From assembly GCA_032117235.1 (NCBI GenBank), contig JAULZW010000005.1, forward strand, positions 31,264 to 95,263: 64,000 bases of DNA. The letters are read 5' to 3'. Made by a program: the position numbers and the translations under genes. The notes under the pieces were generated by a model, which was not told where the DNA came from, did not search any database, and saw only the letters and a list, made by a program, of their open reading frames with translations. Of the stretch, positions 4,507-47,416 are shown in pieces (the stretch's first letter is position 1; the number at the start of each line of letters is the position of its first letter). This DNA comes from Minisyncoccota bacterium. Lineage in GTDB: Bacteria > Patescibacteriota > Minisyncoccia > SW-4-49-11.

Positions 4507-4826
4507 GAGGCGAATAATTTGTCTAGGCTCATCCCTACTGCTTTTTCGGTGAGATGTTTTAATTCCTCAACGGAATTACTATCTGAGCTAATAGGTAGCT
4601 GTGAGATAGGTATATTGAGTGAGTTCAAGACTTTTTTTTGTTTAGAGGTAAGAATTATATTGGAGGCTATAAATATAATAGCATACATTTCGGCATCTTT
4701 TTGAATAGTATCTATAATTTGGTCTATTTCTAATTCATTACTATTCAAAGTCTCAAATCCAAATAATTGAAATAAGAGATTAATGTCTGATTCAGCTATT
4801 ATAACTGGTTTTTTATAGTCTAACAT
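4503..4826 (-). CDS. atpF: A/V-type ATP synthase subunit F
   Basis: 107 aa with a subunit-F-like N-terminus ([19 protein letters not shown]). Position is between C and A, as in A-type operons. Confidence 0.6.
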
Positions 4827-5761: not shown

Positions 5762-6294
5762 ATTTCCTTTATTACGGAGGCTAATGTTGTTTTTTTGACT
5801 TTATCCAAAATATCCTCAACAGTAATTTCTAGGCTGATATTCTCTAACTTGCCATTAATGGCCCCTAAATTAGAGTTTTGATTGCTTTTACTGTTTTTAT
5901 AGCCAAGACTTGAAATTATATCTTTTAATTCTTCGGTATATTTTCCAGTAATAGTTAAAGTTGTGTTCTGTGGGATACCCTGAAGAGTGTCTTGAATTAA
6001 AGTTTTGACAAAGTTAGAAGCTAGAATTTCTGGTAAAGATTCAATATAAATAACTTCTAATTGAGATTGTATAGCATAGCCAGAATTGAATTTACTAGTT
6101 TTACTGTTTTGGAATTTCTGAAAATTAACTTGAGTAGCAACGGCTTCTTCAATTTTTTCAGTATGTAGCTTTTTGGTCTCAGACAAAGCAGTATTCCATG
6201 TATCTTTGTTTTCTTTCAAGTCTGCTTTATATTGAGCTTCTAATTTCTCAATATCTTTATTCATCTGAGATTGTATTAAATCTGCTAAAGTCAT
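5758..6294 (-). CDS. atpE: A/V-type ATP synthase subunit E (peripheral stalk)
   Basis: 178 aa with a charged coiled-coil N-terminus and a globular C-terminus. Position after subunit K. Confidence 0.6.
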   Translation of the reverse strand: MTLADLIQSQMNKDIEKLEAQYKADLKENKDTWNTALSETKKLHTEKIEEAVATQVNFQKFQNSKTSKFNSGYAIQSQLEVIYIESLPEILASNFVKTLIQDTLQGIPQNTTLTITGKYTEELKDIISSLGYKNSKSNQNSNLGAINGKLENISLEITVEDILDKVKKTTLASVIKEI

Positions 6295-6296
6295 AT

Positions 6297-6776
6297 TTAT
6301 CCTACTGATACTCCGTTAATAATTAGAATAGAAACTAGCAATCCGAAAACAGCAAAAGTCTCTACTAAAGCGGCTAAGATAATTACTTGTCCAATCTTAG
6401 ATTTATCTCTAGCGATCAATTGAACTCCACTAGCAATTACATCACCCTGATATTTTCCAGAAGCTAAACAAGTAAGTCCTACAGGAATTCCAGCAAAAGC
6501 TAATATCATACCATTTTGCCAACTAACATTTGCAAACTCACCAGATAATACTCCAGTATTTTGCAGAATTAAAACAGCTGCTAAAAGACCATAAATAGCT
6601 TGTGATCCAGGCAGAGCTGATAATAAAAGTATATTCCCAAATTGAGAATCATCCTCAGCAACTAACCCAGCTCCAGTTTTACCAGCGGTAGAAACTCCGA
6701 TTGATGAGCCAGCTCCAGCTAAGCCGGCAGCTAGAGCAGCACCTAATACTGCTAAACTTATACCTAATACTTCCAT
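6297..6776 (-). CDS. atpK: A/V-type ATP synthase proteolipid subunit K (duplicated 4-TM c subunit)
   Basis: 159 aa and Gly/Ala-rich with four predicted TM helices (LAAGLAGAGSSIGVSTAGKTGAG). This matches a double-hairpin V-type c subunit. Confidence 0.85.
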   Translation of the reverse strand: MEVLGISLAVLGAALAAGLAGAGSSIGVSTAGKTGAGLVAEDDSQFGNILLLSALPGSQAIYGLLAAVLILQNTGVLSGEFANVSWQNGMILAFAGIPVGLTCLASGKYQGDVIASGVQLIARDKSKIGQVIILAALVETFAVFGLLVSILIINGVSVG

Positions 6777-6879
6777 ATATTCAACTTTAACTTTTAATTA
6801 GGGACAGAGCTTCTTACCACTGCTATCCTTTTCGCTATACTCCTAAATTTTTAAGAATATAATGAAAAAGATAACAGTA

Positions 6880-8916
6880 TTATTCAATAACACTATAATC
6901 TTGAGATCGAGAAACCTCCTGTAAGGGTCTTCCTCCAGATTGGAAGAATTTACTAAAGAATTCTACAAAGTGCAATCTACCTACATTGATATAAGTACCT
7001 AAGACATTCAGAGCAATATTAAATATATTTCCTGCTACAAAAATAACAATCATAATAATATATCCAATAACAATCCAAGCACCACCTTTTTCTACTAATC
7101 CGCTACCAGCTAGGTTTGCTAAGGTTCCTACTACTCCAGCAATAATTCCAGTTGCAAGACCTAGAGCAACTAACCTAGTATAAGATAGTATATCTGACAA
7201 ATATCCTACTACTCCAAAAAATACATCATAGGCTCCTTTACCAAACTTAGCAAATATAGACTTCATATCTCTACCCAAAAGATATATCATTGTAAATACA
7301 TAGCCAATATATATATATATCAGAGGATCAATGAGTAATTGAAGTCCATTTCCTAATAATCCAAAATTAATAAGCAATAATAATATTCCAAAGATCAAAG
7401 CTAAAGCCCAAAGAATAGAATCTAGACTAGCATCCCAGAATGACTTTTGATTGAATGCTTGTACAATGTTGAGAGATAACCCAAATAAAAGATGAATAAC
7501 TCCAAGTACAATAGTGAATCCCATCAAAGTAATTACACTGTCCATAGGATTGATAACTTGTAATTGCTGCAAGAAAGGAATTAGTCCAATACTAATTAAG
7601 AATTTCATATGAGGTGACGCTGTAGCAGGGTCAATTGCATCTGGAGTAATTCCAAACCAACTACCAAATAAAGCTCCTACAATCAAAGTAGAGATAGAAG
7701 CAATAAACACTACTGCAAAAATATCTCTTACACCTGATTTTAATCTAGAATTTAATAATCCAAGCCCAGTCAAAATAATTAGAATCAGCGCATATCCAGC
7801 CTCAGATAAAGCTAATCCGAACATAAAGGTGAAGAATATAGCAATAGATAAAGTCGGATCAATTTTGCCAGCCTGCGGATAACCCATAATTTTTGTTACA
7901 GTTTCAAAATGTCTTACAATAGGCAAGTTTTTGAATATAACTGGAGTGTCTTCAGATACAGATGGTAATTCTACAATTTTAATATCATTTGAAATGTCTA
8001 AAATATCTTTTTTATATAAATTAAACTTTTCTTCATCTACCCATAACTTTATAGAAGAATTTGTTTCAGATTCTGGATTAAAAGAATGTAAATAAGAAAT
8101 CAAATTTAGTTGAGAATTTAATACATCTGCTAAAATAGCCAAATCCTTGAGCTGAATAGGGGATTTTTTGAGCTCAAGATTTATTTTATTGATGATTTTG
8201 GCATTAACACTAAATTCTTGTTTACTTTTATGATAAATATCATAAAAAGATCCTGTAACTTCAGCTGGAAATTGAATGAAGGTAGCTTGATTTTGAATTA
8301 TATCTAGTCCAATTTTAACCTGATTTTTTGAAACGGCTAAAATATAAACATAATCAGTCCCAATTTTTTTAACAGACTCCAATACAATAGGAGATAAACT
8401 TTGCTCCAACTGCTCTACTAAATAATGGGCTCTAGATTCATCAACTAAAAATGGTAAAAATTTAATATAAGAATAGGGTTTAAAAATATTAAGTTCGATG
8501 TCTTTTAGAGGTTCTGATTTAGCAATAATATCTTGTAAAACTTCTTGTCTAGTTGTTAAATCATCTTTCAGTCCAGCTTTTTCTACAATCTCTTGAGCTT
8601 TTTTGATAATTTCTCCTTGCTCTGTATTATAATGTTCAAAAATGTCTTCAGTGATTAAAAATCTATCATCTAACACAGCTGAGAACATGGATTTTTTAAC
8701 AGTATGATACCCTTTGTATATATCCAAAGATTTATTTACTATATCTAGATTTTCTAATAGATCCTCTTGTTTATGTAAATAATTTTTAGCTAAAGGAGTT
8801 CTTTCTAGTTTTTCTATAATTTCTCCAACTTGACGCTTTTGAATATAAGCTAATAAGTTTAATTGAGTATTGTTTGGAACAGTGATTTGAATTAGTTTAG
8901 ACGCTTTAACTCCCAT
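6880..8916 (-). CDS. atpI: A/V-type ATP synthase subunit I (a-subunit, membrane)
   Basis: 678 aa with a soluble N-terminal half and a polytopic C-terminal half. Position between the atpH-like gene and K. Confidence 0.8.
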   Translation of the reverse strand: MGVKASKLIQITVPNNTQLNLLAYIQKRQVGEIIEKLERTPLAKNYLHKQEDLLENLDIVNKSLDIYKGYHTVKKSMFSAVLDDRFLITEDIFEHYNTEQGEIIKKAQEIVEKAGLKDDLTTRQEVLQDIIAKSEPLKDIELNIFKPYSYIKFLPFLVDESRAHYLVEQLEQSLSPIVLESVKKIGTDYVYILAVSKNQVKIGLDIIQNQATFIQFPAEVTGSFYDIYHKSKQEFSVNAKIINKINLELKKSPIQLKDLAILADVLNSQLNLISYLHSFNPESETNSSIKLWVDEEKFNLYKKDILDISNDIKIVELPSVSEDTPVIFKNLPIVRHFETVTKIMGYPQAGKIDPTLSIAIFFTFMFGLALSEAGYALILIILTGLGLLNSRLKSGVRDIFAVVFIASISTLIVGALFGSWFGITPDAIDPATASPHMKFLISIGLIPFLQQLQVINPMDSVITLMGFTIVLGVIHLLFGLSLNIVQAFNQKSFWDASLDSILWALALIFGILLLLINFGLLGNGLQLLIDPLIYIYIGYVFTMIYLLGRDMKSIFAKFGKGAYDVFFGVVGYLSDILSYTRLVALGLATGIIAGVVGTLANLAGSGLVEKGGAWIVIGYIIMIVIFVAGNIFNIALNVLGTYINVGRLHFVEFFSKFFQSGGRPLQEVSRSQDYSVIE

Positions 8917-9473: not shown

Positions 9474-10928
9474 CTACACAAAGAATTTTTTACGAATTAT
9501 TTCATCTTGTTCTCTTTGCTTATCTTCAATTAAATTGATGGCCTTTATTTTCAAGTCTTTGAGGTCCTGTACGGCTAATATTTGAGCTTGTGATTTGAGA
9601 TAGTTGGGATTATTTTTACTTGGGTTCTCTAATATTTCGGCTAATAAAACATTTAGAATCATACCTATCATAGGTCCTGCTGGGATTTTTAATTCCTTAA
9701 TTAAAGTATTTCCATCTATTTTGAGCATAGATAAATCTATTGGGTCTAATAAAACTTTTTCTGTCATATATTCAAAATGCCGTAGGCGATAGGGGCGAGC
9801 CTTAGGAGTTCCAGAACCAATACGGTCACATTCTCTTAGCTTAATCAAGTCCTTGATATTCTCAACTCCTACATTACGGATAAGCTTACGAATAGAGGAT
9901 TCAGTCACTTCATTGGTATCATAATAAAACATATGATAACGCACTAATTTTGAAATTCGGGCTGCAAATTTTTTAGGATAATGAAGTCTATTGAGAATTT
10001 CATAAGCCATACTAGCGCCTACAACTTCATGATTATGAAAAGTACAGGTTTTCCCTACGCCTTCTTTAGTACGAGGTTTTGCAATATCATGTAATAGTCC
10101 AGCCATTCTCAAATCAAAGCTCCAAGACATATCACAAGCATGTTGCATAGTCCTCAAAAGATGTTCCCAAACATCATAAATATGATGTCCATTTTGTTCT
10201 ACTCCTATACCTTCTAATAATTCGGGCATTATGAAAGGTAATAAATGAGTATCTCTTAGTAATATATAGCCATTCATTGCTCGCGGGGTTAGCATCATTT
10301 TGGTGAGCTCATCTCGAATTCGCTCCTGCGCAATATGCTCGAGATTAGGAGCTAAATCTTGAATAGCTTGCAAGGTTTTAGGCTCAATGGTGAAATCTAA
10401 TTGCACTGCAAATCTCACAGCTCGCATTAGTCTCAAGGCATCTTCCCCAAATCTATCTTTTGGCTCACCCACAGTACGAATAATACCTTTTTCTAAGTCA
10501 GATAAACCTTCAAAGAAATCTTGTATTTCTAATTTAGCATTCATCGCCAGAGTATTAACAGTAAAATCTCGGCGAGCAAGGTCAAGAGAGAGTTCAGAGA
10601 CGAATTCAATTTGTTCAGGATGCCTCTTATCGGTATATTGAGATTCTTTGCGATAAGTGGTAACTTCAATAATCTCTGTCGTATCATCCGGACGGCGATA
10701 CTTGACCCCTACAGTTCCAAAACTATTCTCATAAACAGAGTCAGGAAATAATTCTTGAATTTGATTCGGAAGAGCATTAGTAGTAATATCCCAATCTACG
10801 GGATTTGAACCTCTCACAAGATCACGAACACTACCTCCAACAATAAAAGCTTCATATCCAGCTTGTTCGAGTGTATTCAATATTAAAATAATATGATTAG
10901 GTATAGAATAAGACATAATTTTTTTCAT
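9474..10928 (-). CDS. cca: CCA-adding tRNA nucleotidyltransferase with HD domain
   Basis: Class II polymerase-beta motif GGSVRDLVRGSNPVDWDITT and an HD motif LLHDIAKP. The start is set at the internal MKKIMSYS because the longer ORF would overlap the tRNA gene. Confidence 0.85.
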   Translation of the reverse strand: MKKIMSYSIPNHIILILNTLEQAGYEAFIVGGSVRDLVRGSNPVDWDITTNALPNQIQELFPDSVYENSFGTVGVKYRRPDDTTEIIEVTTYRKESQYTDKRHPEQIEFVSELSLDLARRDFTVNTLAMNAKLEIQDFFEGLSDLEKGIIRTVGEPKDRFGEDALRLMRAVRFAVQLDFTIEPKTLQAIQDLAPNLEHIAQERIRDELTKMMLTPRAMNGYILLRDTHLLPFIMPELLEGIGVEQNGHHIYDVWEHLLRTMQHACDMSWSFDLRMAGLLHDIAKPRTKEGVGKTCTFHNHEVVGASMAYEILNRLHYPKKFAARISKLVRYHMFYYDTNEVTESSIRKLIRNVGVENIKDLIKLRECDRIGSGTPKARPYRLRHFEYMTEKVLLDPIDLSMLKIDGNTLIKELKIPAGPMIGMILNVLLAEILENPSKNNPNYLKSQAQILAVQDLKDLKIKAINLIEDKQREQDEIIRKKFFV

Positions 10929-10936
10929 ATAAATAA

Positions 10937-11014
10937 TGGAGCCAATGGTGGGGATCGAACCCACGACCTATGCGTTACGAATGCATTGCTCTACCAGAAC
11001 TAAGCTACATTGGC
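10937..11014 (-). tRNA. tRNA-Thr (anticodon CGU), CCA encoded
   Basis: The reverse complement folds into a cloverleaf with a 7-bp acceptor stem GCCAATG/CATTGGC, T-loop TTCGATC and anticodon loop TTCGTAA with U33 and A37. One A-C mismatch closes the anticodon stem. The 3' end is TCCA. Confidence 0.88.
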
Positions 11015-12240: not shown

Positions 12241-13659
12241 TTATTTTGTCTTGATAATCACACTTTTCCCGTCTTTATCCTGGATAATGTAGCCTGATTT
12301 AGATAATTCTTGTCTTAATTTGTCAGCTTGGTCAAAGTCTTTATTGGCTCTAGCTTGATTGCGATTATTGAAAATAAGCATTATATCAGCGGGGATTGAG
12401 GTTTTGGTGAGGGGTAAATTGAGAGCCAGAACTCGCTCTAATCTTTGGAATAATTTGATTATATGGCGTCTTGGTATGGGGTCTCCAGCATCTATTGAGC
12501 TATTGATTTCTTTGATAAAATCAAACATAAAGGCAATGGCCTTGGGGGAGTCAAGATCAGAGAAAAGAGATTTTTTGAAATTATTATAGGTATCTCGGAT
12601 CAGCTTTTGTAGCTTTAGGTTTTTGCGATGTGGCTTGATAGTATTCACTCTATTGATAAAATCTATTATCCGCTGGCGGGTTTGTTTGGCTTGAGTTAGG
12701 GAGTCCCAAGAAAAATCTATATCAGAGCGATAATGTGCCATTAAAACTAATAATCTCAAGTCTAGTGGAGAATAGTCTTTATCAACAATATCATCTAGGG
12801 TGATAAAAGTTCCCGCTGATTTGGACATTTTGGCGGTATTGACGGTGAGAAAATAACTGTGCAGCCAATAATGTGCCATTGGCTTACCAGTATCTGCTTT
12901 GAACTGAGCTATTTCATTGGTGTGATGAATTGGAATATGATCTTTACCTCCTGTATGTATATCAAAGGGTGCATGGAGTAGTGAGTCTGCCATTACTACA
13001 CATTCAGAATGCCAACCAGGGAAGCCAATTCCCCAAGGGCTATCCCATTCCATTTGTCTTGTCTCATCTTTAGGGGAGAATTTCCATAAAGCAAAATCTG
13101 AGGGCGATTTTTTATCTCCCATATTTACTCGAGCTCCGGCTTCCTGAGCTTTGAGATTGAGATGGGCAAAATCAGCATATTCTGGGAATTTGGTAGTATC
13201 AAAATATACTCCATCACTGATAATATAGGTATATCCTTTGCGCTCTAATCTCTTGATAAGATTAATTTGCTCTTTTATATATTCAGTTGCTTTCGGGTAA
13301 TGGTCTGAAGAAAGAATATTCAGTTTTTCTAAATCTTCTTGCCAAAGTTTGGTGTATTTCTCGGCGATTTCTAATGCTGTGAGATTTTCTCTTTTGGCTC
13401 CTTTTTCTAATTTATCCTCTCCGGTATCCTCATCACTAACCAGATGGCCAACATCTGTAATATTAGTAACTGAATAAATAGTATAGCCATGTAATTGCAG
13501 AGTTCTTTTGAGTAAATCATCAAATAAACTTTTTCGTAAATTTCCAATATGCTGTCTATCATATACGGTTGGTCCACAACTATATAGGGACACTCTTTTT
13601 AGGTGTATGGATTTGAAAGGGACTATTGCCTTGGCTGGGGTATTATATAGTTTTATCAT
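12241..13659 (-). CDS. cysS: cysteinyl-tRNA synthetase
   Basis: Class I aaRS with a HIGN (HIGH) motif at the N-terminus and a KMSKS motif (TAKMSKSAGT). Length 472 aa. Confidence 0.9.
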   Translation of the reverse strand: MIKLYNTPAKAIVPFKSIHLKRVSLYSCGPTVYDRQHIGNLRKSLFDDLLKRTLQLHGYTIYSVTNITDVGHLVSDEDTGEDKLEKGAKRENLTALEIAEKYTKLWQEDLEKLNILSSDHYPKATEYIKEQINLIKRLERKGYTYIISDGVYFDTTKFPEYADFAHLNLKAQEAGARVNMGDKKSPSDFALWKFSPKDETRQMEWDSPWGIGFPGWHSECVVMADSLLHAPFDIHTGGKDHIPIHHTNEIAQFKADTGKPMAHYWLHSYFLTVNTAKMSKSAGTFITLDDIVDKDYSPLDLRLLVLMAHYRSDIDFSWDSLTQAKQTRQRIIDFINRVNTIKPHRKNLKLQKLIRDTYNNFKKSLFSDLDSPKAIAFMFDFIKEINSSIDAGDPIPRRHIIKLFQRLERVLALNLPLTKTSIPADIMLIFNNRNQARANKDFDQADKLRQELSKSGYIIQDKDGKSVIIKTK

Positions 13660-17800: not shown

Positions 17801-20800
17801 TTATAATACTTTTATTCCTAGCACTCTTTCCAGCTCCGCAAAATCAGTTGTATGATCTAATACCTTTAGAATACCAGAAACTTCTAAAGTTGTCATGCCT
17901 TCCTCAATAGCCAACTTTTTAATATTAGAGGTGGAAGCATTAGCTATAATAGTCTCCTTGATTTTAGGAGTCAGCACTAACACTTCAAATATAGCGGTAA
18001 TTCCATTATATCCATTAGGGTGATCTGGACTTTCATTAGACTTAAGAATAGTGTCAGGGATTTGACTATGATATCTTTCTGGTAATTTAGATTTTATAAT
18101 ATCTTTTTGTTCATTAGAAAGAGTAATAGTGATTGCATTGGCAGGATCTATCTTTCTAATAATTCTTTGAGCTATAGTTACATTAACAAAAGTAGCTATC
18201 TCAGATATACCAATTCCGAGATCATATAGTCTTAATATTGCTGACGCTGCATCATTGGTATGTAGAGTAGATAGTAATAAATGTCCAGTGGCTGCAGTTT
18301 GCATAGCTACCTTAGCTGTTTCTGTATCTCTTATCTCTCCAATTAAGACTATATTTGGATTCTGCCTTAACAGAGCTCTAATAGCATTAGGAAAGCTATA
18401 CCCCGTCGCTTCATTTACACTAGTCTGTAAAATGCCAGATAATTTGTATTCAATAGGGTCTTCTATAGTTATTATTTTGACACCAGGTTGATTAAGCGCA
18501 TTAAGAGTTGCATAGAGAGTAGTAGATTTACCAGCGCTAGTAGGTCCTGTTACTAAAATTAGTCCTGTAGTAGCTTGGAGTTGGTCTTGTAACAAGTTTA
18601 TATTATATATATCCATTCCTAAATCATGTAATTTGAGCTTAGCAATATCGGAGCGTAATATTCTCATAACTATGGTCTGACCATAACCTCCTGGAATTAT
18701 AGAAACTCTCACATCAAAATTTTTATCACTAAATATAGTAAAGCGACCCTCTTGAATATTGTTGGCAATATCCAAAGGTAATCCAGAGAAAATTTTAATT
18801 TGATTTAAAATTTGAGGATATAAAGACTTTGGTACACGAGCTTCTTCATATAAAACCCCATCAATTCTAAATCTAATAATCAATTCAGTCATATCAGGTT
18901 CAAGGTGAATGTCGGTAGCTCTTTTATTTAAAGCAGTATTGGTAATAGCTGTTAATTGATCCTGGATAGACATTGACTCAGATATATGAGTAATCTCAGG
19001 TGTAGGAGTCTCTGATTTTTTAATATGAATTCCACGAGATAAGGCAGAAGTCAAAGTAGATTCATAAATTTCATCTATATAAGATATATCTCCTGCAACA
19101 GACAATACTTCTTCTATAGAAGTTTCACCGTCTATTACATGCAAAACTCCATCTTGAAATAGGGTTATCATTCCATTTTCAATAGCTTTCCTAAATACTT
19201 TAAACTCAGGAGTCCCGTTGATAATTAAATCTTTAACATTATCACGAGTCTCAAATAATTCATATAAAGCTAGTCTTCCTTTATATCCAATTCCATAACA
19301 TTTCTCACATCCTTTGGGACGATATAATTTATTGATTTTTTGTGGAATGGTTAAGTTGGATTTAGGAGATATAATAGCTAATGCTTTTTTTATAGAATCT
19401 AATTCCTGTTCTGTAGGAATATATTCTTCTTTACAGTCACAAAATTTTCTTACCAATCTTTGAGCCACAAAAAGATTCATCGCTGAAATTATTAATTGTG
19501 GACTGGAACCAAATTCTTTAAGTCTAGTAATAATACCCACTGAATCATTTGTATGAATAGTAGAAAATACCAAATGCCCAGTTATGGCAGCATTCATAGA
19601 TATACTGGCAGTATCATTATCTCGAACTTCTCCAATCATAATTACATCAGGATCTTGTCTTACAATAGCTTTTAACCCATTAGCAAAGGTATAGCCTTTT
19701 TTTGCATCAACTTGAGTTTGATTAATATTTTGTAATCTATACTCAATTGGATCTTCAATGGTAATAATATTAGTTTCAGTTCTGTTTACGTAATTAAGAA
19801 AAGAGTATAGACTGGTAGTTTTTCCCGAACCAGTAGGTCCAGATAACATAATCATACCCTGAGGCTTGTCGAGATTTCTAACTATAATATCTAAAAAAGT
19901 CTCTCTAATACCAAAACTATAAATATCTAGATTGTGAATTTCTGTATTGAGAAGTCTCATTACAATAATCTCACCAGTTTTGCTAGGTAAAATTGAAACC
20001 CTTACATCAATTGACTGGTTTATATTGCTAGAATTCTCTTTTATAATAATACTAAATCTACCATCTTGAGCAGTAGTCTTTACGTTTAATACAAGAGAAG
20101 CTAAATTTTTTACTCTTGAGATTAATAATTTATACATTTCATTGTCAAAATTCAAAATATCCTGTAAAACTCCATCTATGCGATATCTAAGTCTAGTAAT
20201 ATCACCTTTTGGTTCTATATGTATGTCACTAGCTAAAGAAGAAATAGCCCCGGCACAAATGATTTGCATTAATTCGGAAGTTTCAACTGAATTAATTTTG
20301 TGAGCAAAATCTTCTAAAGCAATAACACTTTGCTTAACTTCTTGTAGCATCTGAAGTGGTATTATGAGGTTGTCTTTTACCACCTCACTTCTTTCCTGTA
20401 AAAATTCATATGCATTATATCCCTTCTCTAAGCTATATCCCGAGACCAGATATAAATCTACTTCATAATTACTTTGATATAATTTTTGCAATATAATTTT
20501 AGCTATAGAGTTATTTATATCTTGTAGGGCTACTTTTAGATTTAATCCAGACCTTTGAAAAATTATCATCTGGGCTTTTTTGGCCTGTTCTTGACTTAGT
20601 ATTTTAAGGGCATCTGGGTTAATTGGAACAAGTTTTAGATTGAGATAAGCCATCCCAAGCTCATTTGCCAATCTTTGAGTTAGTAACTCTTCTTCCCTTT
20701 TATGAATGGCAGCTAAGTTTAAGTCTACTACTTTATCTGAATGTAGTTTGTTTCTAAAACTTTGACGATTATAATTTTTTTGTTTTAGTATTGAACTCAT
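17801..20800 (-). CDS. tandem-duplicated PilB/GspE-family secretion ATPase (two complete modules in one polypeptide)
   Basis: Module 1 has Walker A SGPTGSGKTT, Asp box IITIEDPIEY, Walker B DVIMIGEVRD, His box GHLVFSTIHTND and a tetracysteine CDC...CEKC. Module 2 has TGPTSAGKSTT, IITIEDPIEYKL, IVLIGEIRDTE and GHLLLSTLHTNDA without the cysteines. There is no stop between the modules. Confidence 0.85.
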   Translation of the reverse strand: MSSILKQKNYNRQSFRNKLHSDKVVDLNLAAIHKREEELLTQRLANELGMAYLNLKLVPINPDALKILSQEQAKKAQMIIFQRSGLNLKVALQDINNSIAKIILQKLYQSNYEVDLYLVSGYSLEKGYNAYEFLQERSEVVKDNLIIPLQMLQEVKQSVIALEDFAHKINSVETSELMQIICAGAISSLASDIHIEPKGDITRLRYRIDGVLQDILNFDNEMYKLLISRVKNLASLVLNVKTTAQDGRFSIIIKENSSNINQSIDVRVSILPSKTGEIIVMRLLNTEIHNLDIYSFGIRETFLDIIVRNLDKPQGMIMLSGPTGSGKTTSLYSFLNYVNRTETNIITIEDPIEYRLQNINQTQVDAKKGYTFANGLKAIVRQDPDVIMIGEVRDNDTASISMNAAITGHLVFSTIHTNDSVGIITRLKEFGSSPQLIISAMNLFVAQRLVRKFCDCKEEYIPTEQELDSIKKALAIISPKSNLTIPQKINKLYRPKGCEKCYGIGYKGRLALYELFETRDNVKDLIINGTPEFKVFRKAIENGMITLFQDGVLHVIDGETSIEEVLSVAGDISYIDEIYESTLTSALSRGIHIKKSETPTPEITHISESMSIQDQLTAITNTALNKRATDIHLEPDMTELIIRFRIDGVLYEEARVPKSLYPQILNQIKIFSGLPLDIANNIQEGRFTIFSDKNFDVRVSIIPGGYGQTIVMRILRSDIAKLKLHDLGMDIYNINLLQDQLQATTGLILVTGPTSAGKSTTLYATLNALNQPGVKIITIEDPIEYKLSGILQTSVNEATGYSFPNAIRALLRQNPNIVLIGEIRDTETAKVAMQTAATGHLLLSTLHTNDAASAILRLYDLGIGISEIATFVNVTIAQRIIRKIDPANAITITLSNEQKDIIKSKLPERYHSQIPDTILKSNESPDHPNGYNGITAIFEVLVLTPKIKETIIANASTSNIKKLAIEEGMTTLEVSGILKVLDHTTDFAELERVLGIKVL

Positions 20801-26320: not shown

Positions 26321-27535
26321 TTATATTTGATCAAATTTAACTATTTCTCCATTGATCTCCACTCCATTTTGAGATAGTGTTTTAGAGCTAATAATAACTC
26401 TTTTATTAATTCCTAATAAGTCAGCTTCTGCAAACTTTACTCCAGGTCTTTCATTGCGATTATCAAATAAAACAGTTTGGTTGTTGCTTTGAATTTGCAG
26501 GTATAATTCTTCGGCTTTTCTCATAACATCCTCAGAGTCTGTATTTAAGGCAATAAGATGAATACGGAATGGAGTAACTGATTCTGGCCATATCATTTTA
26601 GACTCATTTTCAGCAAAAACTTCTACCAAAGTTCCCATTAATCTAGAAATTCCAATTCCATAACATCCCATAATTACTGGTTTATTAAACCCATTTTCAT
26701 CAGTAAACTCCAAATTAAATGCCTCAGAGTATTTTGTTTCTAATTTAAATATGTTTCCAACCTCAATAGACTGCTTTTGAATTAAGTTAGAATTATTACA
26801 TTCAGGACAAGTTTTTTGTTCCTCTATAATTTCTTTATTTATAGCAATATTACATTTTTCACATATAAAAATTGTATCTTCTCCGATATCAGATACAGTC
26901 TGGAACTCATGTGAATATTTGCTAAATGTGCCACCAGAAGCATAAGTTTTAAAAGTTATATCTCCGATACCAAGTCTTTTATAAATATTGATATAGGCTT
27001 GAGTTGCAAGTTCATAATATCTATCTAAATCTGCAGAGGAGCTGTGGAAAGAATATAGATCTTTCATAATAAATTCTCTACCTCTTAAAATTCCTGATTT
27101 AGCTCTTTTTTCGTCTCTAAACTTAGTTTGAATTTGATAAGCAGCTAAAGGTAAATCTTGATATGACTGAATAAAGTTTTTCGCAATAGGTGTTATAATT
27201 TCTTCGTGAGTAGATCCTAGCGCTAGCTCTGTTGAAGTATAGTAAGAAGTAAATTTGTATAATACATCTAAACTATTCCATCTACCAGTCTTTTCCCAAT
27301 AAGATTTTGGTTGAAGCGCTGGCAATAATAATTCTTGGGCTGAGATTTTGCTTAACTCTTCTCTTACTATATTCTCTATGTTTTTTATGACACGATACCC
27401 TAAAGGTAAATAAGCATAAACACCAGCCATAACTTGTTCTATATACCCAGCTTTGATTAAAATTTTAGCATTTAGGGATTCTTCTGTTTGAGAGATTTGT
27501 TTTCTAGTTTTGGAAATTAGGTTAGACTGATACAT
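26321..27535 (-). CDS. proS: prolyl-tRNA synthetase, minimal form lacking the INS editing domain
   Basis: Class II motif 1 LLPALQPKSYWEKTGRW, motif 2 FRDEKRAKSGILRGREFIMKDLYSF and motif 3 GCYGIGISRLMG. A C-terminal anticodon-binding domain is present. Between motifs 2 and 3 there are only about 33 aa (CEKC...CPEC), not the roughly 180-aa INS domain. Confidence 0.8.
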   Translation of the reverse strand: MYQSNLISKTRKQISQTEESLNAKILIKAGYIEQVMAGVYAYLPLGYRVIKNIENIVREELSKISAQELLLPALQPKSYWEKTGRWNSLDVLYKFTSYYTSTELALGSTHEEIITPIAKNFIQSYQDLPLAAYQIQTKFRDEKRAKSGILRGREFIMKDLYSFHSSSADLDRYYELATQAYINIYKRLGIGDITFKTYASGGTFSKYSHEFQTVSDIGEDTIFICEKCNIAINKEIIEEQKTCPECNNSNLIQKQSIEVGNIFKLETKYSEAFNLEFTDENGFNKPVIMGCYGIGISRLMGTLVEVFAENESKMIWPESVTPFRIHLIALNTDSEDVMRKAEELYLQIQSNNQTVLFDNRNERPGVKFAEADLLGINKRVIISSKTLSQNGVEINGEIVKFDQI

Positions 27536-27543
27536 ATTAAGAT

Positions 27544-28095
27544 TTAATTATTAAGTAATGCAGTAATTTTATTTTGAGGGAAATATTTCATAACAATATG
27601 CCAGACTGGTTTACGGTATTCATGTAGAAATTTCTCAATTTTATCTTGTGAAACCCATAAAAATCCACCCAACTCTCTACGGTCTACTTTAATTGACTGG
27701 GTGCTACCATTGTATTTAAGTAACATAATAGTTTGTTCTTGTCCTAAATTCTCGTCTCGAATAAGTCTCTTAGGGAAATAAAAGGTATGTTTTTCTGGGC
27801 ATTTATCTAAAATTGTAAAATCAGTAGTATTTAACTCCTCCCCCAACTCTCTTATAATTGCTTCCTCATTAGTTTCATTCTCATTAACTCCACCCTGAGG
27901 AAACTGCCAATGCAAAGGGTCATTTGCTCTAGATACAATTAATACATTTTCATCTTTATCAAATATTATTGCTAGTACATTTTTCCTTAGTTTACCATAG
28001 GACATATATTTTAAAATTAAACCATTATCATAATTATATGTATTATAGCTTATATTTAGTATTTTGTATACAACATAAGTATTTTTATTAGACAA
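27544..28095 (-). CDS. Nudix hydrolase
   Basis: Nudix box GGVNENETNEEAIIRELGEELN (G-x5-E-x7-REUxEExGU pattern). It sits 8 nt upstream of proS on the same strand. Confidence 0.8.
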   Translation of the reverse strand: MSNKNTYVVYKILNISYNTYNYDNGLILKYMSYGKLRKNVLAIIFDKDENVLIVSRANDPLHWQFPQGGVNENETNEEAIIRELGEELNTTDFTILDKCPEKHTFYFPKRLIRDENLGQEQTIMLLKYNGSTQSIKVDRRELGGFLWVSQDKIEKFLHEYRKPVWHIVMKYFPQNKITALLNN

Positions 28096-28146
28096 AAATA
28101 TAAAAATATGATATTATTTTTATATATTAATATAATATCATATAAT

Positions 28147-28386
28147 ATGAGTAAAAAACTATTAGAAAAATACCCAAATCATAAAGAATTTATCTACAAG
28201 ACTGAAATCATAACAAGATATGTTTTTAAAGCTATGATTATGTTGGTGGCTGTTACATTGGTCTTATATCAAGTATTATTTGCACTATCATATCTTGGTC
28301 TAAGCTCGTATCAAGAATATAAGCAAGAACAGCAACAAAATAAGCAACAAAAAGCTTTAGAAAAACTACAAGGAGATAAGAAATAA
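28147..28386 (+). CDS. small membrane protein, hypothetical
   Basis: One predicted TM helix and a Gln/Lys-rich tail. Followed by a terminator hairpin. Confidence 0.3.
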   Translation: MSKKLLEKYPNHKEFIYKTEIITRYVFKAMIMLVAVTLVLYQVLFALSYLGLSSYQEYKQEQQQNKQQKALEKLQGDKK

Positions 28387-28417
28387 TAATAGTCTGCTTT
28401 AGTTTTACTATAATAAA

Positions 28418-28440
28418 AGCCGGTAAATCCGGTTTTTATT
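28418..28440 (+). terminator. rho-independent terminator
   Basis: agccgg-taaat-ccgguu stem-loop followed by UUUUAUU. Confidence 0.45.
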
Positions 28441-28502
28441 GTAAATATATTTAATATAGTATAAACTAAATATAGGTTAACAAATTATATTTTTATTTAA
28501 AT

Positions 28503-33070: not shown

Positions 33071-36049
33071 ATGTATAACCACAGAACTATTGAACAAAAA
33101 TGGATTAAAAAATGGGCTGAAGGCTTTGTAGATTATAGGGTTGACAATGCTTCAGATAAAGAAAGTAAATATATTTTAGTTGAATTCCCTTTTCCTTCAG
33201 GTGCTGGACTTCATGTAGGACATATCCGTAGCTATGTAGCACAGGATATAAAGGCAAGAATGTATCGTATGCAGGGACAAAATGTACTTTATCCTCTAGG
33301 CTGGGATGCTTTTGGGCTACCAACAGAAAATTATGCTATTCAGAATAATATATCTCCTGTTATTGCAACAGAAAATAATATTAATACCTTCAAAAAACAA
33401 TTAGCATTATTAGGATTATCTTTTGATTGGAGTCGTGAAATTAATACTACTGATCCACAATATTATCGCTGGACGCAATGGATATGGCTACAAATGTATA
33501 AAGCTGGACTTGCTTATCAAGATACCACTAAGGTTTGGTGGTGTGATGAATTAAAAACTGTTCTTGCTAATGAAGAGGTTATTGATGGGAAATCAGAGCG
33601 TGGGGGATATCCTTGTGAGAGAGTGTCCTTAACACAATGGATGTTAGCAATTACCAAATATGCAGATAGATTGGATAAAGATTTAGATACTGTTGATTAT
33701 TTGCCCATTATCAAAACACAACAGAGAAATTGGATTGGTCGTAGTGAGGGAGTTCAATTAAAATTCCAAATTCTAGACTCAGATGCGTCTGTGGAAGTCT
33801 TTACTACTCGAATAGATACCGTATTTGGCGTTACCTTTTTGGTATTAGCACCAGAAAATCCAATTTTAGATAATATTGTAACAACAGAGTATAAGGAGGT
33901 AATACAAGCCTATCAAAAGCAAACGAAATCTAAAAGTGATTTAGATCGTCAGCAAGAAAAAGAAAAAACTGGAGTCTTTACGGGAACTTATGCTCTACAT
34001 CCATTAACAGGGGAGCAAATTCCTATTTGGACTGCCGATTATATATTAATGAATTATGGAACTGGAGCCGTAATGGCAGTACCTGCTCATGATGAGAGAG
34101 ACAGAGAATTTGCTGAAAAATTTGAATTACCTATTAAACAGGTAATTGCTGAATATGCTACTCTTACAGGGCAAGATGCTCCAAAGAGTGATGAAAATAT
34201 TATTAAGTTTGATGCAGCAACTGTAATTGTTAAACATTGGGAAGAAGAATTATATTATGTAATACAATTTAATGATGGACGAAATGGTTTTGTCGGGGGA
34301 CATGTTGAATTAGGTGAGACAACAGAAGAAACTGCAATTCGTGAGACGGCAGAAGAATCTAGATATGTAGATATTAAAAAGATTGAGCAGCTTATTGAGC
34401 ATGTATATAGTCGTGGTTATAAACATCGTAAATTGAGAGAGGAAGAATGTCATGATTCTCTATTTGTAGTAACATTAGGTAGTGACAAACAATTAGAGGT
34501 GATTGATGAGGAGACACAAAAAGGCCGTTGGGTGACTGCAGAAGAAATTATTAAATCAAGACTAGTAGATGACATATATCTATTCCAAACTTTTTTTGAA
34601 TATTATCTTAATCAAAAACCATTTACAGGGTATGGAAAACTTGTAAATTCAGATCAATTTGATGGATTATTCTCAGAAGAAGCTAAAGAATCACTTATTA
34701 CTATATTAGAAGAGAAAAATATCGGGCAAAGAAAAATTCAATATAAACTCCGAGATTGGGTATTCTCACGTCAGCGCTATTGGGGAGAACCTTTCCCTAT
34801 TGTTTGGATTAGCGAACAGTCCTATGGGCAAATATCAGATGAAATTACTGAGTTTCTACCAGCAAATCCTGTTACTCGACAAAAAAATAATAATACGGAA
34901 TATGCGGCTCCCTTGGCTCCTACAGAATTACCTCTCGAATTACCAGAAGTAGAATCATATATTCCACAAGGTTTGGGAGAAGGTCCTTTAGCTCAAACTA
35001 AAGATTGGGTAGAGATTTGGTATCATATTGAAACAGGAAAAACACTATCTCGTAGTGAAACTAAACCCGATGAGAATTGGGTAGAGGGTGTTAGAGAAAC
35101 TGATACTATGCCCAATTGGGCAGGAAGCTCTTGGTATTATCTTAGATATGCTGACCCTCATAATACTCAAGAATTAGCAAGCAAAGCTGCTTTAAAGCAA
35201 TGGCTACCAGTGGACTTATATAATGGGGGTATGGAGCAGGTAACTGTACATTTACTCTATTCTAGGTTTTGGCATAAATTCCTCTATGATATTGGTGTAG
35301 TCCCTACAATAGAGCCCTATCAGAAGCGCATTGCTCATGGAATGATTTTGGCTGAAGGAGGAGTTAAAATGTCAAAATCCAAAGGTAATACCGTGGATCC
35401 GGTAGAAATGGTAGAGTCATTTGGAGCAGATGCTCTCAGAATTTATGAGATGTTTATGGGACCTTATGATGAGGCAATTGCTTGGGATACAAGTGGTCTT
35501 ATTGGATGTAGTCGATTTTTGAAGCGAGTATATCAGTGGATTATGGATATGCAAACTCAAACATTAGAAAAAGCCGTAGACACAATCAAATTAGATTATG
35601 ATACCCATTTATTGATACGTAAAATTACTGAAGATATTGAAAATCAAAAATATAATACCTGTATTAGTAGTTTAATGGAATATCTCAATACCTATATTAA
35701 TAAAGATATTGGTATTGAGTATATTAAGATATATATTACTCTCTTAGCTCCATTTGCTCCACATATTGCGGAAGAATTATGGGAAATATTAGGGGAGAAA
35801 GAATCTGTGCATAAAGCTACTTGGCCACAATTTGATGAATCAAAATTAATTCAGACAGAAGTAGATTATCAAATTCATATTAATGGAAAAATGCGAGATA
35901 TTATTACCGTTAATGCGGAATTAGACAATGAGGCTATTCAACAAAAAGCTTTGGAATCATATAAAGTAAGTACTATTATCACGGATAAAAATACTATTAA
36001 GAAAATTATAGTAAATCAAACTAAAAAAATAGTTATAATTATAAGTTAG
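33071..36049 (+). CDS. leuS: leucyl-tRNA synthetase carrying an inserted Nudix hydrolase domain
   Basis: HVGH (HIGH) and KMSKS motifs. CP1 editing motifs TTRIDT (aa 247-252) and GTGAVMAVPAHDERD are intact. An extra domain of about 140 aa at aa 376-515 begins with a Nudix-type strand and carries the Nudix box GGHVELGETTEETAIRETAEESRY. Confidence 0.9.
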   Translation: MYNHRTIEQKWIKKWAEGFVDYRVDNASDKESKYILVEFPFPSGAGLHVGHIRSYVAQDIKARMYRMQGQNVLYPLGWDAFGLPTENYAIQNNISPVIATENNINTFKKQLALLGLSFDWSREINTTDPQYYRWTQWIWLQMYKAGLAYQDTTKVWWCDELKTVLANEEVIDGKSERGGYPCERVSLTQWMLAITKYADRLDKDLDTVDYLPIIKTQQRNWIGRSEGVQLKFQILDSDASVEVFTTRIDTVFGVTFLVLAPENPILDNIVTTEYKEVIQAYQKQTKSKSDLDRQQEKEKTGVFTGTYALHPLTGEQIPIWTADYILMNYGTGAVMAVPAHDERDREFAEKFELPIKQVIAEYATLTGQDAPKSDENIIKFDAATVIVKHWEEELYYVIQFNDGRNGFVGGHVELGETTEETAIRETAEESRYVDIKKIEQLIEHVYSRGYKHRKLREEECHDSLFVVTLGSDKQLEVIDEETQKGRWVTAEEIIKSRLVDDIYLFQTFFEYYLNQKPFTGYGKLVNSDQFDGLFSEEAKESLITILEEKNIGQRKIQYKLRDWVFSRQRYWGEPFPIVWISEQSYGQISDEITEFLPANPVTRQKNNNTEYAAPLAPTELPLELPEVESYIPQGLGEGPLAQTKDWVEIWYHIETGKTLSRSETKPDENWVEGVRETDTMPNWAGSSWYYLRYADPHNTQELASKAALKQWLPVDLYNGGMEQVTVHLLYSRFWHKFLYDIGVVPTIEPYQKRIAHGMILAEGGVKMSKSKGNTVDPVEMVESFGADALRIYEMFMGPYDEAIAWDTSGLIGCSRFLKRVYQWIMDMQTQTLEKAVDTIKLDYDTHLLIRKITEDIENQKYNTCISSLMEYLNTYINKDIGIEYIKIYITLLAPFAPHIAEELWEILGEKESVHKATWPQFDESKLIQTEVDYQIHINGKMRDIITVNAELDNEAIQQKALESYKVSTIITDKNTIKKIIVNQTKKIVIIIS

Positions 36050-44708: not shown

Positions 44709-44979
44709 GAAATCTTTTAGAAATATGAATGCAGTAGCATTATGTAACATATCCTATAGTTAGTTGCTAAACTTTATCCGATTTTTAATGAAATGTTTTT
44801 ACTGTAAAATGGGGTTTATATTACAATTAGAACCCCTCTAAAAAATCTCTCCATTATTAAAGCTTTAAATATTTATTAGATGTTGATTAATTCATATTTA
44901 TCTTTAAAGAATAAGTTATTTATTAGAAATATAGGAGTTATATGATATACTTAATAATATATTGATATTAATAAATATT

Positions 44980-45957
44980 ATGAGCAATATTTGTCTTACA
45001 GGAATTCAGCCTACAGGAAAATTACATATTGGTAATTATTTTGGTGCTATGCAACCAATTTTAGAGTTATCTAAACAAACTGAATTTGATAAAATTTTAG
45101 TCTTTGTAGCTAATTTACATTCTCTTAATAGTATTAAAGATGGAGATACTCTTAGAACTTATACTAAAGATATAGCATTAGATTATCTAGCATTAGATTT
45201 AGATCTAGCTAAAACAAGTCTATTTTTACAATCAGACATTAAACCACTTACTGAACTAACTTGGATATTAAATAATTTAGTTACAGTGGCTTATTTGGAG
45301 AGATCCCATGCTTATAAAGATGCTTTAGATAATGGCAAAGAATCTAATATGGGATTGTTTAACTATCCAATTTTGATGGCGGCAGATATTCTGCTATATC
45401 AATCTAATGTAGTTCCAGTCGGACAAGATCAAAAACAACATATTGAAATTGCTCAGGCTATAGCCAAAAAATTCAATTCCCAATACGGTAAAACCTTTAA
45501 TATTCCCAAACCCTATATTCAATCTAACACATCTATAGTGAAAGGATTAGATGGACGCAAAATGAGTAAATCTTACAAGAATACTATTGAAATTTTTGAG
45601 CCAGCCGACTCAATCCGAGCTAAAGTAATGAAAATCACCACCGACTCCAAAGCTCCCAATGAACCAAAAGATCCAGACAACTGTAATATAGTGGCAATTT
45701 ATAGATTATTAGCTAATCCAGCAGATTTAACTATAATGGAAAATAAATATAGGGAAGGTAAGATTTCTTATAAAGAAGCTAAAGAAATATTGGCAGAGAC
45801 AATCTTAGAATATTTTCAACCTATGCGAAATCGTCGTCAGGAATTATCTCAAAATCCAGAATATGTAGCTGAAATTCTAGCTAAAGGAGCAAAAGAAGCT
45901 AATTTAATAGCTGAAAAAACTATTAAACAAGTTAGAGAACTTGTAGGTATAAGTTGA
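44980..45957 (+). CDS. trpS: tryptophanyl-tRNA synthetase
   Basis: Class I motifs QPTGKLHIGNYFGA (HIGH) and KMSKS. Start taken at MSNICLTG. Confidence 0.9.
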   Translation: MSNICLTGIQPTGKLHIGNYFGAMQPILELSKQTEFDKILVFVANLHSLNSIKDGDTLRTYTKDIALDYLALDLDLAKTSLFLQSDIKPLTELTWILNNLVTVAYLERSHAYKDALDNGKESNMGLFNYPILMAADILLYQSNVVPVGQDQKQHIEIAQAIAKKFNSQYGKTFNIPKPYIQSNTSIVKGLDGRKMSKSYKNTIEIFEPADSIRAKVMKITTDSKAPNEPKDPDNCNIVAIYRLLANPADLTIMENKYREGKISYKEAKEILAETILEYFQPMRNRRQELSQNPEYVAEILAKGAKEANLIAEKTIKQVRELVGIS

Positions 45958-46033: not shown

Positions 46034-47416
46034 ATGGTAACTATTCAATTTTGTGGAGGAGCGGGCTCAGTAACAGGTGCTAATTATGTTATAGATAACG
46101 GCAGAATTAGATTTGTAGTTGATTGTGGTCTCATACAAGGAAATAAAGAAGCGGATGAATTGAATTATGTTCCCTTTGTGTATGACCCAAAGAATATTGA
46201 CTTTATGATAGCTACACATACACATATAGATCATATAGGTCGTATTCCAAAATTAGTAAAAGAAGGTTTTAGAGGAGAAATATATTCTACATATCCTACC
46301 CAAGAATTTTCTGAGATATCCCTAAGAGACACCGTTTCTATTATGGAGCATGACCATACTCAATTGCCTTTATTTAGTAATATGGATGTTGATCAAGCCG
46401 TGTCTCAGTGGAGAGGGCGAGAATATCATGAAATATATGAAATTAATGAAAGTATTTCATTCAGATTTCAGGATGCGGGCCATATTTTGGGTTCTGCTAT
46501 TACTGAAGTTTGGGTTCTTAATCCAGAAAATGGAAAGAGAGTTAAGCTTGTCTTCTCTGGTGATTTAGGAAATGTACCATCTGTTTTATTGCGAAAATAT
46601 GATTATATTCAAGAGGCTGATTATGTTATTGTAGAGTCTTGTTATGGAGATAGGATTCATCAAAAATTATCTGAGAGAAAAGCTATCTTAAAGCAAGCTA
46701 TCAAGGATACTATTGAAAGAAAATCGGTTTTGATTATGCCTACTTTTTCTATCGAGAGAACTCAAGATATTTTGTACGAATTAAATGATATTATAGAAAA
46801 TCATTCAGGCGATGGACTACAAAGAGGCAAAGTAGGTAAAATTGATGTTTATCTAGACTCTCCTTTGGCTATTAAAGCCACTAATATCCATGCTAAATAT
46901 ACCCAATATTATAATCAAGAGGCAAAACAGTTAGCTAAAAAAGATAAAATATTTGACTTTCCATTTTTAACTTTAACCGAAAGTAGAGAAGATTCTATGA
47001 AGATAAATAGCCAGCCTCAACCTAAGATGATAATGGCTGGTTCTGGTATGTCTACAGGAGGTAGAGTATTGTATCATGAAGAAAGATATTTATCCAACCC
47101 AAATAATATTATACTTTTTGTTGGTTATCAGGCTCCCTATACTTTGGGTAGAAGAATTCTAGAAGGTGAAAGCTCAGTTTATATACATAATCATACAATA
47201 GAAAATAGAATAGAGGTTAGAAGGGTAGAAGGTTACTCAGCGCATGCCGACCAAGAAATGTTATTAGATTGGATTTCTAATATTAAAAATTCCAAAAATA
47301 TATTTGTAGTTCAAGGGGAGCAAGAAGCATCACAAACTTTAGCTAATGCAATCAAGGACAATTTACATCTGCAAGCACAAGTACCCACAGAAAATGAAAT
47401 AGTTATCTTAAATTAA
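46034..47416 (+). CDS. MBL-fold beta-CASP ribonuclease (RNase J/CPSF-like)
   Basis: Metallo-beta-lactamase motif HTHIDHIG, downstream beta-CASP His/Asp residues and a C-terminal EGYSAHAD. Confidence 0.75.
   Translation: MVTIQFCGGAGSVTGANYVIDNGRIRFVVDCGLIQGNKEADELNYVPFVYDPKNIDFMIATHTHIDHIGRIPKLVKEGFRGEIYSTYPTQEFSEISLRDTVSIMEHDHTQLPLFSNMDVDQAVSQWRGREYHEIYEINESISFRFQDAGHILGSAITEVWVLNPENGKRVKLVFSGDLGNVPSVLLRKYDYIQEADYVIVESCYGDRIHQKLSERKAILKQAIKDTIERKSVLIMPTFSIERTQDILYELNDIIENHSGDGLQRGKVGKIDVYLDSPLAIKATNIHAKYTQYYNQEAKQLAKKDKIFDFPFLTLTESREDSMKINSQPQPKMIMAGSGMSTGGRVLYHEERYLSNPNNIILFVGYQAPYTLGRRILEGESSVYIHNHTIENRIEVRRVEGYSAHADQEMLLDWISNIKNSKNIFVVQGEQEASQTLANAIKDNLHLQAQVPTENEIVILN

Follow-up and report, generated by a model that had tools for sequence, protein, structure and literature searches.

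A Nudix–proS gene pair in one lineage of Patescibacteria, coding for a predicted RppH/NudH-branch hydrolase and an INS-less prolyl-tRNA synthetase

The described systems closest to the locus presented here come from two sides. The first one is that of the RppH-type Nudix enzymes, which hydrolyse both diadenosine tetraphosphate (Ap4A), a compound produced mainly by aminoacyl-tRNA synthetases (aaRSs) (PMC10148737), and Np4 caps (PMC10148737, PMC8833179); in the structure of RppH with Ap4A, the adenine is held between R27/Q30 and L83/V137/F139, and the β-phosphate is bound by R27 and Q95 (PMC8833179). The second one is that of the prolyl-tRNA synthetases (ProRSs) of alphaproteobacteria lacking the INS editing domain, for which trans-editing by the free-standing ProXp-ala is the known solution (PMC3973320). 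The present study deals with a pair of adjacent genes—one for a stand-alone Nudix hydrolase, the other for a ProRS without INS—found in a 64,000-nucleotide stretch of contig JAULZW010000005.1 (positions 31,264 to 95,263, forward strand; assembly GCA_032117235.1) of a Minisyncoccota bacterium; this whole stretch is hereafter called the window, and all positions refer to it.

Both genes are located on the minus strand, the Nudix gene (27544..28005) being followed by proS (26321..27535), and together they represent a conserved operon occurring in one lineage only. It is fairly probable that the pair is a two-gene housekeeping operon, composed of a Nudix hydrolase from the RppH/NudH branch and a minimal ProRS, which arose once and does not serve as an editing module of the synthetase. 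The window, with a G+C content of about 31%, comes from a patescibacterial genome. The close relatives of the locus are found in metagenome-assembled genomes (MAGs) labelled as Paceibacteria, Parcubacteria or Minisyncoccia, and a ProRS with 85% identity is present in Candidatus Elulimicrobium humile; the source lineage is thus Patescibacteria, related to Paceibacteria/'Elulimicrobium'.

Organization of the pair and features of its two products

The stop codon of the Nudix gene (TAA, 27546–27544) is separated from the ATG of proS at 27535 by a spacer of only 8 nucleotides (27536..27543, minus strand), in which the terminator scan found no terminator-like site. Owing to this spacing and the lack of a terminator, co-transcription is almost certain, as the initial annotation of the region had already proposed. 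Flanked by divergent and convergent genes, the pair would act as one transcription unit, with its promoter located 5' of the Nudix gene. A consensus scan revealed there a promoter-like TATACA-17-TATAAT element (28042..28070, minus strand), positioned between the codons TTG at 28095 and ATG at 28005; it should be noted that promoter-like matches in this region do not exceed the shuffled expectation, and the element is a candidate only. No leader RNA, T-box or riboswitch was found 5' of proS with Rfam, the only RNA detected in the window being one tRNA. A divergent small open reading frame (ORF) within 28108–28443 (plus strand; 92 residues, 79–82 in most relatives), conserved 5' of the Nudix gene in close relatives, appears from inspection of its sequence by eye to code for a membrane protein, and a strong terminator-like hairpin at 28409–28443 follows it.

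As listed originally, the Nudix ORF spans 27544..28095 and would give 183 residues from the TTG at 28095, the length adopted in the initial annotation. All 30 of 30 database homologues are, however, 144–156 residues long, and the gene calls on related contigs range from 145 to 154 residues, so that the ATG at 28005 (MSYGKLRKNV…) is the predicted real start, and the protein is shortened to 153 residues; the TTG start was rejected as probably spurious. The Nudix box (27826..27894, minus strand; residues 38–60, GGVNENETNEEAIIRELGEELNT; catalytic E44, R52, E53, E56 and E57) reads G38-x5-E44-x7-R52-E53-L54-x-E56-E57-L-N-T and is intact with respect to the consensus GX5EX7REUXEEXGU, just the penultimate glycine being replaced by asparagine. 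Its catalytic residues, including the glutamates, are invariant in the family alignment of 20 members. The protein is recognized by the Pfam model NUDIX (PF00293) with an E-value of 3.5e-16 and 59.8 bits against a cut-off of 21.1, and both the presence of the box and the match of the AlphaFold2 model with Nudix structures place it in the Nudix superfamily.

Concerning its position within the superfamily, the best match among sequences from the PDB is the lupin Ap4A hydrolase (7.5e-16), E. coli RppH following at approximately 1e-11, both over the full length; in general, the RppH and Ap4A-hydrolase matches cover the whole protein, with alignments over residues 7–144 and E-values from 1e-11 to 1e-26. 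RppH is also the subject of the top NCBIfam models, the best of them being NF001936 with 90.3 bits (cut-off 118). With the AlphaFold2 model built from the family alignment (predicted local distance difference test score, pLDDT, of 90.7), Foldseek places E. coli RppH first, including its RNA- and Ap4A-bound forms, with a template modelling (TM) score of 0.82, followed by the lupin enzyme with 0.79; all of the top 17 matches are RppH or lupin Ap4A hydrolase, and the Nudix enzymes acting on GDP-mannose or ADP-sugars rank far lower. All members of the family alignment have the motif WQFPQGG, which they share with RppH and the lupin enzyme. Four of the RppH residues contacting Ap4A—R27, L83, F139 and Q95—correspond in the alignment to R26, L81, Y130 and Q89, whereas the counterparts of Q30 and V137 are P30 and H128, i.e. 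they are not conserved; within the family itself, R26 and Q89 do not vary at all, and near-invariance is seen for L81, H128 and Y130. Based on these sequence and model comparisons, we conclude that the protein belongs to the RppH/NudH/Ap4A-hydrolase branch and probably works like an RppH/NudH-type hydrolase, strict orthology not being claimed.

The second product, the ProRS of 404 residues, contains only two domains in Pfam, tRNA-synt_2b (PF00587) and HGTP_anticodon (PF03129). It scores 429.7 bits with TIGR00409 (proS_fam_II; cut-off 306.7), being matched in two stretches, and can be assigned from its sequence to the bacterial-type (P-type) prolyl-tRNA synthetases. The alignment with the INS-containing structures 5ZNJ, 2J3L and 5UCM also falls into two blocks, residues 1 to ~240 and ~245 to 395 matching chain residues 1 to ~260 and ~403 to 555, so that some 150 target residues have no counterpart in the window ProRS. 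The INS domain (YbaK-like, PF04073) was found in the window ProRS neither with Pfam nor by these alignments, and its absence, noted already in the initial annotation, follows from the skipping of those approximately 150 residues. At the position of INS there is a Cys4 zinc-knuckle-like element, C225-E-K-C228 and C243-P-E-C246 (26798..26863, minus strand), with putative zinc-binding function. It had been described as a mini zinc ribbon of about 33 residues; the Cys4 pattern is real, but the core comprises 22 residues, and it is not special to this genome. Among the INS-less ProRSs, 16 of 19 inside the clade and 50 of 83 outside it show the CxxC…CxxC pattern (66 of 102 patescibacterial sequences together), the Cys4-less ones possessing a Cys-free segment of similar length at the same place. 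The cysteines have been lost repeatedly (e.g. L008:1712-2953, L021:4463-5700 and L006:5154-6407, plus 33 out-of-clade loci), which is what one would anticipate if the role of the metal site were purely structural. The best 120 database homologues listed are, save one fragment of 288 residues, 396–421 residues long, and none of them has INS. The INS-less and mostly Cys4-bearing ProRS is thus the norm across Patescibacteria. The model PRK12325, covering the alphaproteobacterial INS-less 'exception', gives 371 bits with the window ProRS and is not passed (cut-off 550).

Distribution and origin of the pair

In individual look-ups, proS was found directly 3' of the Nudix homologues exhibiting 83, 72, 63 and 58% identity. 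The scan with the Nudix family alignment, taking one genome per species, returned 80 loci: ProRS is encoded directly downstream in all 15 of 15 species-representative loci whose Nudix reaches 62% identity or more, and no ProRS gene lies within 4 kb in the 65 loci whose Nudix does not exceed 43%. The pair-bearing loci (L001-L023, L092 and L093) cover Nudix identities of 58–94%, and all the metagenome contigs examined at this identity carry the pair, too. In the reverse direction, a ProRS with 63% identity has the Nudix gene upstream, whereas those with 58–59% identity from other Patescibacteria (L089-L091) have none; together with 80 metagenome loci coding for out-of-clade INS-less ProRSs (44–57% identity), in which no Nudix was found within 3 kb, they form the set of 83 out-of-clade loci. 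The intergenic gap amounts to 1–12 nucleotides in all 19 distinct in-clade loci with both genes called, and the flanks of the pair exhibit at least five upstream and at least five downstream contexts. Conservation in relatives, the check named in the initial annotation, thus holds within one lineage, i.e. in 15 of 15 species-representative genomes and with the flanks shuffled. It should be pointed out here that rearrangements at the borders would keep the pair together whether or not the two products cooperate. Some of the MAGs in the data set, labelled as 'uncultured Candidatus Saccharibacteria' or 'uncultured Gammaproteobacteria' (L009, L015, L023, L025, L033, L039, L050 and others), share their patescibacterial gene arrangements with MAGs of Paceibacteria, Uhrbacteria or Falkowbacteria; these labels look unreliable.

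The closest out-of-clade relatives of the Nudix (35–43% identity) are not stand-alone enzymes; they form the C-terminal domain of proteins of about 400 residues with an N-terminal domain of the WecG/TagA family (PF03808). These WecG~Nudix fusions are present in approximately 41 patescibacterial loci (L024-L075 and L085; e.g. L033:3233-4432, L038:3236-4465 and L044:3233-4477), in about 20 of which the gene for glutamyl-tRNA synthetase (GluRS) follows directly, while in 36 gltX is no more than 4 kb away. The neighbour-joining tree shows the proS-linked Nudix sequences as one monophyletic clade nested in the WecG-fused radiation, the proteobacterial RppH and the lupin Ap4A hydrolase being positioned outside. 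This nesting makes it probable that the stand-alone Nudix either lost the WecG part or was separated from it, and came to precede proS. We have not found the fusions upstream of gltX described in the literature searched.

Two observations concern the surroundings of such genes. A gene for a LigT/ThpR-type 2H phosphoesterase (PF02834) is located directly 5' of the fusion gene in 11 loci (L030, L032, L038, L039, L041, L044, L056, L061, L068, L073 and L075), at positions of about 2450–3250 in each locus except for L041 (1247–1849), and the order ligT–wecG~nudix–(0–3 genes)–gltX represents a possible RNA-end or tRNA-related cluster. Outside Patescibacteria, a single case from Eiseniibacteriota (L078:4674-6008) has an RppH-like Nudix gene with the gene for histidyl-tRNA synthetase (HisRS) 217 nucleotides further on.

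The usual patescibacterial context of the INS-less proS (L094-L173) is rseP (Peptidase_M50)–proS–mreB. Peptidase_M50 was found in 25 of 66 upstream neighbours of the out-of-clade proS and rseP in 45 loci by tblastn, and mreB follows in 48 loci, also by tblastn, the downstream neighbours in this set having been checked by this program for MreB and Nudix only. Within the clade, mreB is kept 3' of proS just at L008, and rseP was not found 5' of the pair; a simple insertion of the Nudix gene into rseP–proS is thus not indicated.

A second Nudix domain in the window, reported in the initial annotation as well, is really present within the leucyl-tRNA synthetase (LeuRS; 33071..36049, plus strand, 992 residues), a gene lying outside the operon, on the opposite strand and with its start 5.1 kb from the Nudix gene. 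The domain covers residues 394–494 (34250..34552, plus strand; Pfam NUDIX, 7e-12) after CP1, the insert as a whole extending over about 34163–34705. The LeuRS retains CP1 (Pfam, 3e-64) with the motifs TTRxDT (as TTRIDT) and AHDxRD (as AHDERD), from which its proofreading appears not to be lost. The insert matches the stand-alone Nudix with an identity of just 26%, and no other sequence in the Nudix tree, in which it served as the outgroup, is as distant; a shared ancestry of the two modules, for which a phylogenetic comparison had been suggested, is thus not supported and was rejected. The exhaustive search with the insert yielded 167 cluster representatives at E ≤ 1e-3, and nine of the ten checked were LeuRSs, in which one to three Nudix domains precede or follow CP1; one of them also has a HAD domain. 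LeuRSs bearing Nudix domains, of which we found no description in the literature searched, are far more widespread than the Nudix–proS operon, which is confined to one lineage. To meet both arrangements in the same window is therefore nothing unusual, and this repetition does not by itself speak for a shared function.

As for the remaining part of the window, a cluster of V/A-type ATPase genes (ATP-synt_D, two ATP-synt_ab, ATP-synt_C and V_ATPase_I), not of an F-type ATP synthase, occupies 662–8916 (minus strand), and a protein of 999 residues with two tandem T2SSE (PilB-like) ATPase domains is encoded at 17801–20800 (minus strand). An ORF of the CCA-adding enzyme/poly(A) polymerase family within 9474–11014 (minus strand), with the listed GTG start at 10964, overlaps the tRNA gene at 10940–11014, its true start being probably further downstream. 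The other aaRS genes code for cysteinyl-tRNA synthetase (CysRS) and a Trp/Tyr-type class I synthetase (12241–13659, minus strand, and 44962–45957, plus strand), giving four aaRSs among about 58 genes in total; the latter gene is followed by that of a β-CASP/RMMBL ribonuclease (46034–47416, plus strand).

Proposed role and competing explanations

From its fold, sequence and conserved substrate-contact residues, the Nudix hydrolase most likely acts on RNA bearing a 5'-triphosphate or an Np4 cap, from which it would remove pyrophosphate or a cap-like group, and on free dinucleoside polyphosphates such as Ap4A, which it would hydrolyse. Possible partners in 5'-end-dependent RNA decay are the β-CASP ribonuclease in the window and, in L004, the products of two RNase J genes adjoining the pair. 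The ProRS, for its part, would be a minimal enzyme with the Cys4 knuckle of about 22 residues in place of the INS domain. The arrangement would have arisen once, from a WecG/TagA-fused domain originally preceding gltX, the Nudix gene having replaced rseP before proS; the two genes would then be kept together as one transcription unit and not as an editing module of ProRS. Several points weigh against this interpretation. All the RppH equivalog models, i.e. NF001936 and four others, stay under their cut-offs, so that orthology to RppH is not established, and the neighbour-joining tree, in which the LeuRS insert was used as the outgroup, carries no support values. The fusion of the sister Nudix domains to a glycosyltransferase-like domain could indicate a substrate related to nucleotide sugars or the envelope, and the occurrence of a Nudix before gltX and then proS, with an unrelated one inside LeuRS, is a recurrence left unexplained by a purely incidental operon.

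This recurrence is the starting point for the view that the Nudix is kept beside or inside aaRSs in order to destroy the Ap4A or Ap4N made by the synthetases and perhaps to decap the resulting Np4-capped RNAs, the co-expression keeping the amounts of hydrolase and synthetase in step where ApaH or YqeK may be absent. Such a role agrees with what is known of the sources and the hydrolysis of Ap4A and Np4 caps (PMC10148737, PMC8833179), with the Ap4A-contact residues of RppH kept in the Nudix and with the associations as such, namely Nudix–proS, WecG~Nudix–gltX, the one Nudix–HisRS case (L078) and the LeuRSs with one to three inserts. The aaRSs account for roughly 3–7% of genes (4 of ~58 in the window), and two independent placements before an aaRS gene are nominally unlikely; this statistic is, however, post hoc and relies on two to three independent events. 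The commonest partner also fits badly: GluRS requires tRNA for amino-acid activation and is a poor producer of Ap4A. Most INS-less ProRSs of the phylum have no Nudix neighbour, the LeuRS inserts come from a different Nudix subfamily, the WecG fusion and the LigT neighbour point to other partners, and an operon frozen by its common promoter accounts for the conservation, no functional link being needed. The disposal of synthetase by-products thus appears doubtful. The same applies to the broader proposal that several independent recruitments in Patescibacteria—to ProRS, to GluRS together with LigT and to LeuRS—reflect a real functional coupling, such as local removal of Np4N alarmones or caps or the processing of tRNA or RNA 5' ends, which we consider unlikely; no such aaRS–Nudix coupling was found described in the literature searched. 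A weaker and looser functional link is possible, since the Nudix–synthetase associations (proS, gltX and the LeuRS inserts) recur in the phylum.

If, on the other hand, the WecG fusion is taken as the guide, the Nudix could cleave a nucleotide-sugar, UDP or lipid-linked pyrophosphate in the synthesis of cell-wall glycopolymers, its position before proS being incidental. The orthologous Nudix is the C-terminal half of a WecG/TagA-family protein in the ~41 sister loci in which the proS-linked clade is nested, the operon adjoins a GT4–LytR/CpsA/Psr–GT2–CtpA block in the window and its closest relatives, and E. coli RppH has been solved with DapF, an enzyme of a cell-wall pathway (PDB 6D13, 5YGU). 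That block, however, lies on the opposite strand and is absent at the more distant pair-bearing loci, no WecG gene is present in the window, and in 11 loci it is the RNA-end enzyme LigT whose gene precedes that of the fusion; since, moreover, RppH and the Ap4A hydrolases are the best matches in both sequence and fold, with the sugar-specific Nudix enzymes ranking far lower, we regard an envelope role as improbable. A MutT-type sanitizer of the nucleotide pool (an 8-oxo-dGTPase or similar), merely sharing the operon with proS, is highly improbable: the models and structures of MutT and of dATP/DHNTP pyrophosphatases match weakly over the Nudix-box half, i.e. just the N-terminal 50–80 residues, with E-values of 1e-7 to 1e-3, in contrast to the full-length matches of RppH and the Ap4A hydrolases mentioned above, and RppH comes first in the fold search, the shared WQFPQGG motif being invariant. 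The MutT-type assignment was thus rejected.

The explanation towards which the initial annotation pointed was proofreading; the Nudix would then stand in for INS by hydrolysing misactivated alanyl or cysteinyl adenylate (Ala-AMP, Cys-AMP) or by clearing Ala-tRNAPro. Within the clade, the linkage to an INS-less ProRS is indeed tight and conserved, and the search for a YbaK/ProXp factor (PF04073) gave no match in the 10 unassigned ORFs of the 64-kb window that were tested directly (seven of 147–204 residues and three larger ones), nor did such a factor appear in the first 25 of the 78 Pfam families assigned to 47 ORFs of the window; this search, however, covered only 64 kb of the genome. In the upstream neighbours of the out-of-clade proS (L094-L173), neither YbaK/ProXp nor Nudix is among the 25 most frequent of 50 Pfam families. 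The chemistry of the Nudix enzymes does not suit the task: they cleave pyrophosphate bonds of substrates consisting of a nucleoside diphosphate linked to a moiety X (NDP-X), whereas an aminoacyl-AMP contains an acyl-phosphate and a mischarged tRNA an ester. The known hydrolases of aminoacyl-adenylates are HIT/Hint proteins. For mischarged tRNAs, the known enzymes are the INS/ProXp/YbaK domains, the deacylases of Ala-tRNAPro being INS and ProXp-ala (PMC3973320). In addition, the INS-less ProRS occurs without a Nudix neighbour in the 83 other patescibacterial loci, so that the Nudix is no general stand-in for INS, and the protein itself is orthologous to the WecG-fused domains preceding GluRS. 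The initial annotation had regarded clustering with a well-characterized housekeeping subfamily as speaking against its idea, and it is the housekeeping RppH/NudH/Ap4A-hydrolase branch in which the stand-alone Nudix sits. Given the chemistry and the distribution, proofreading by the Nudix is very unlikely.

Meaning of the locus and comparison with known systems

The best-supported reading is thus that of a lineage-specific housekeeping operon of two recognizable parts, both being new members of known families, and its value is mainly descriptive. The analysis corrects the start of the Nudix gene, shows the INS-less, mostly Cys4-bearing ProRS as the standard patescibacterial form and dates the change of the gene order from rseP–proS–mreB to nudix–proS. 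If the associations of Nudix with aaRSs—the WecG~Nudix–gltX order and the LeuRS inserts included—were non-random, they would suggest that tRNA charging in ultra-small bacteria is tied, in a way not yet described, to the metabolism of dinucleoside polyphosphates or RNA 5' ends.

Among the known systems, E. coli RppH (NudH/YgdP) resembles the window Nudix in the full-length fold, with about 30% sequence identity, in the size (176 residues versus 153 in the window), in WQFPQGG and the glutamates of the box, as well as in the equivalents of R27, L83, F139 and Q95, which hold Ap4A or the first RNA nucleotides. The differences consist in the scores remaining under every NCBIfam RppH equivalog cut-off, in P30/H128 instead of Q30/V137, in the gene context, which is rppH–ptsP in E. 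coli-type loci (one PtsP-like neighbour was seen) and Nudix–proS in the window, and in the nearest relatives, which are WecG-fused domains in the case of the window Nudix. The Ap4A hydrolase from Lupinus angustifolius (PDB 1F3Y), aligned by its residues 14–161 with residues 7–142 of the Nudix, is similarly close in sequence and fold, but it is eukaryotic and without synthetase linkage. The HIT/Hint hydrolases, e.g. those with lysyl-tRNA synthetase (LysRS), offer the known example of a small hydrolase functionally tied to a synthetase intermediate, a link of the kind that the initial annotation proposed; they differ, however, in both fold and chemistry (phosphoramidase/acyl-AMP hydrolase), and the window protein has no HIT resemblance. 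Concerning the ProRS, the enzyme from Rhodopseudomonas palustris (PDB 2I4L) has likewise a bacterial-type core and an anticodon-binding domain with the editing domain absent between motifs 2 and 3, whereas the linker of the window ProRS is shorter and carries CxxC…CPxC, which is missing from 2I4L in the alignment. Finally, the WecG/TagA~Nudix–gltX arrangement shares with the window the position of a Nudix directly before an aaRS gene, although the window Nudix lacks the WecG domain, its partner is ProRS instead of GluRS, and no LigT gene is located upstream.

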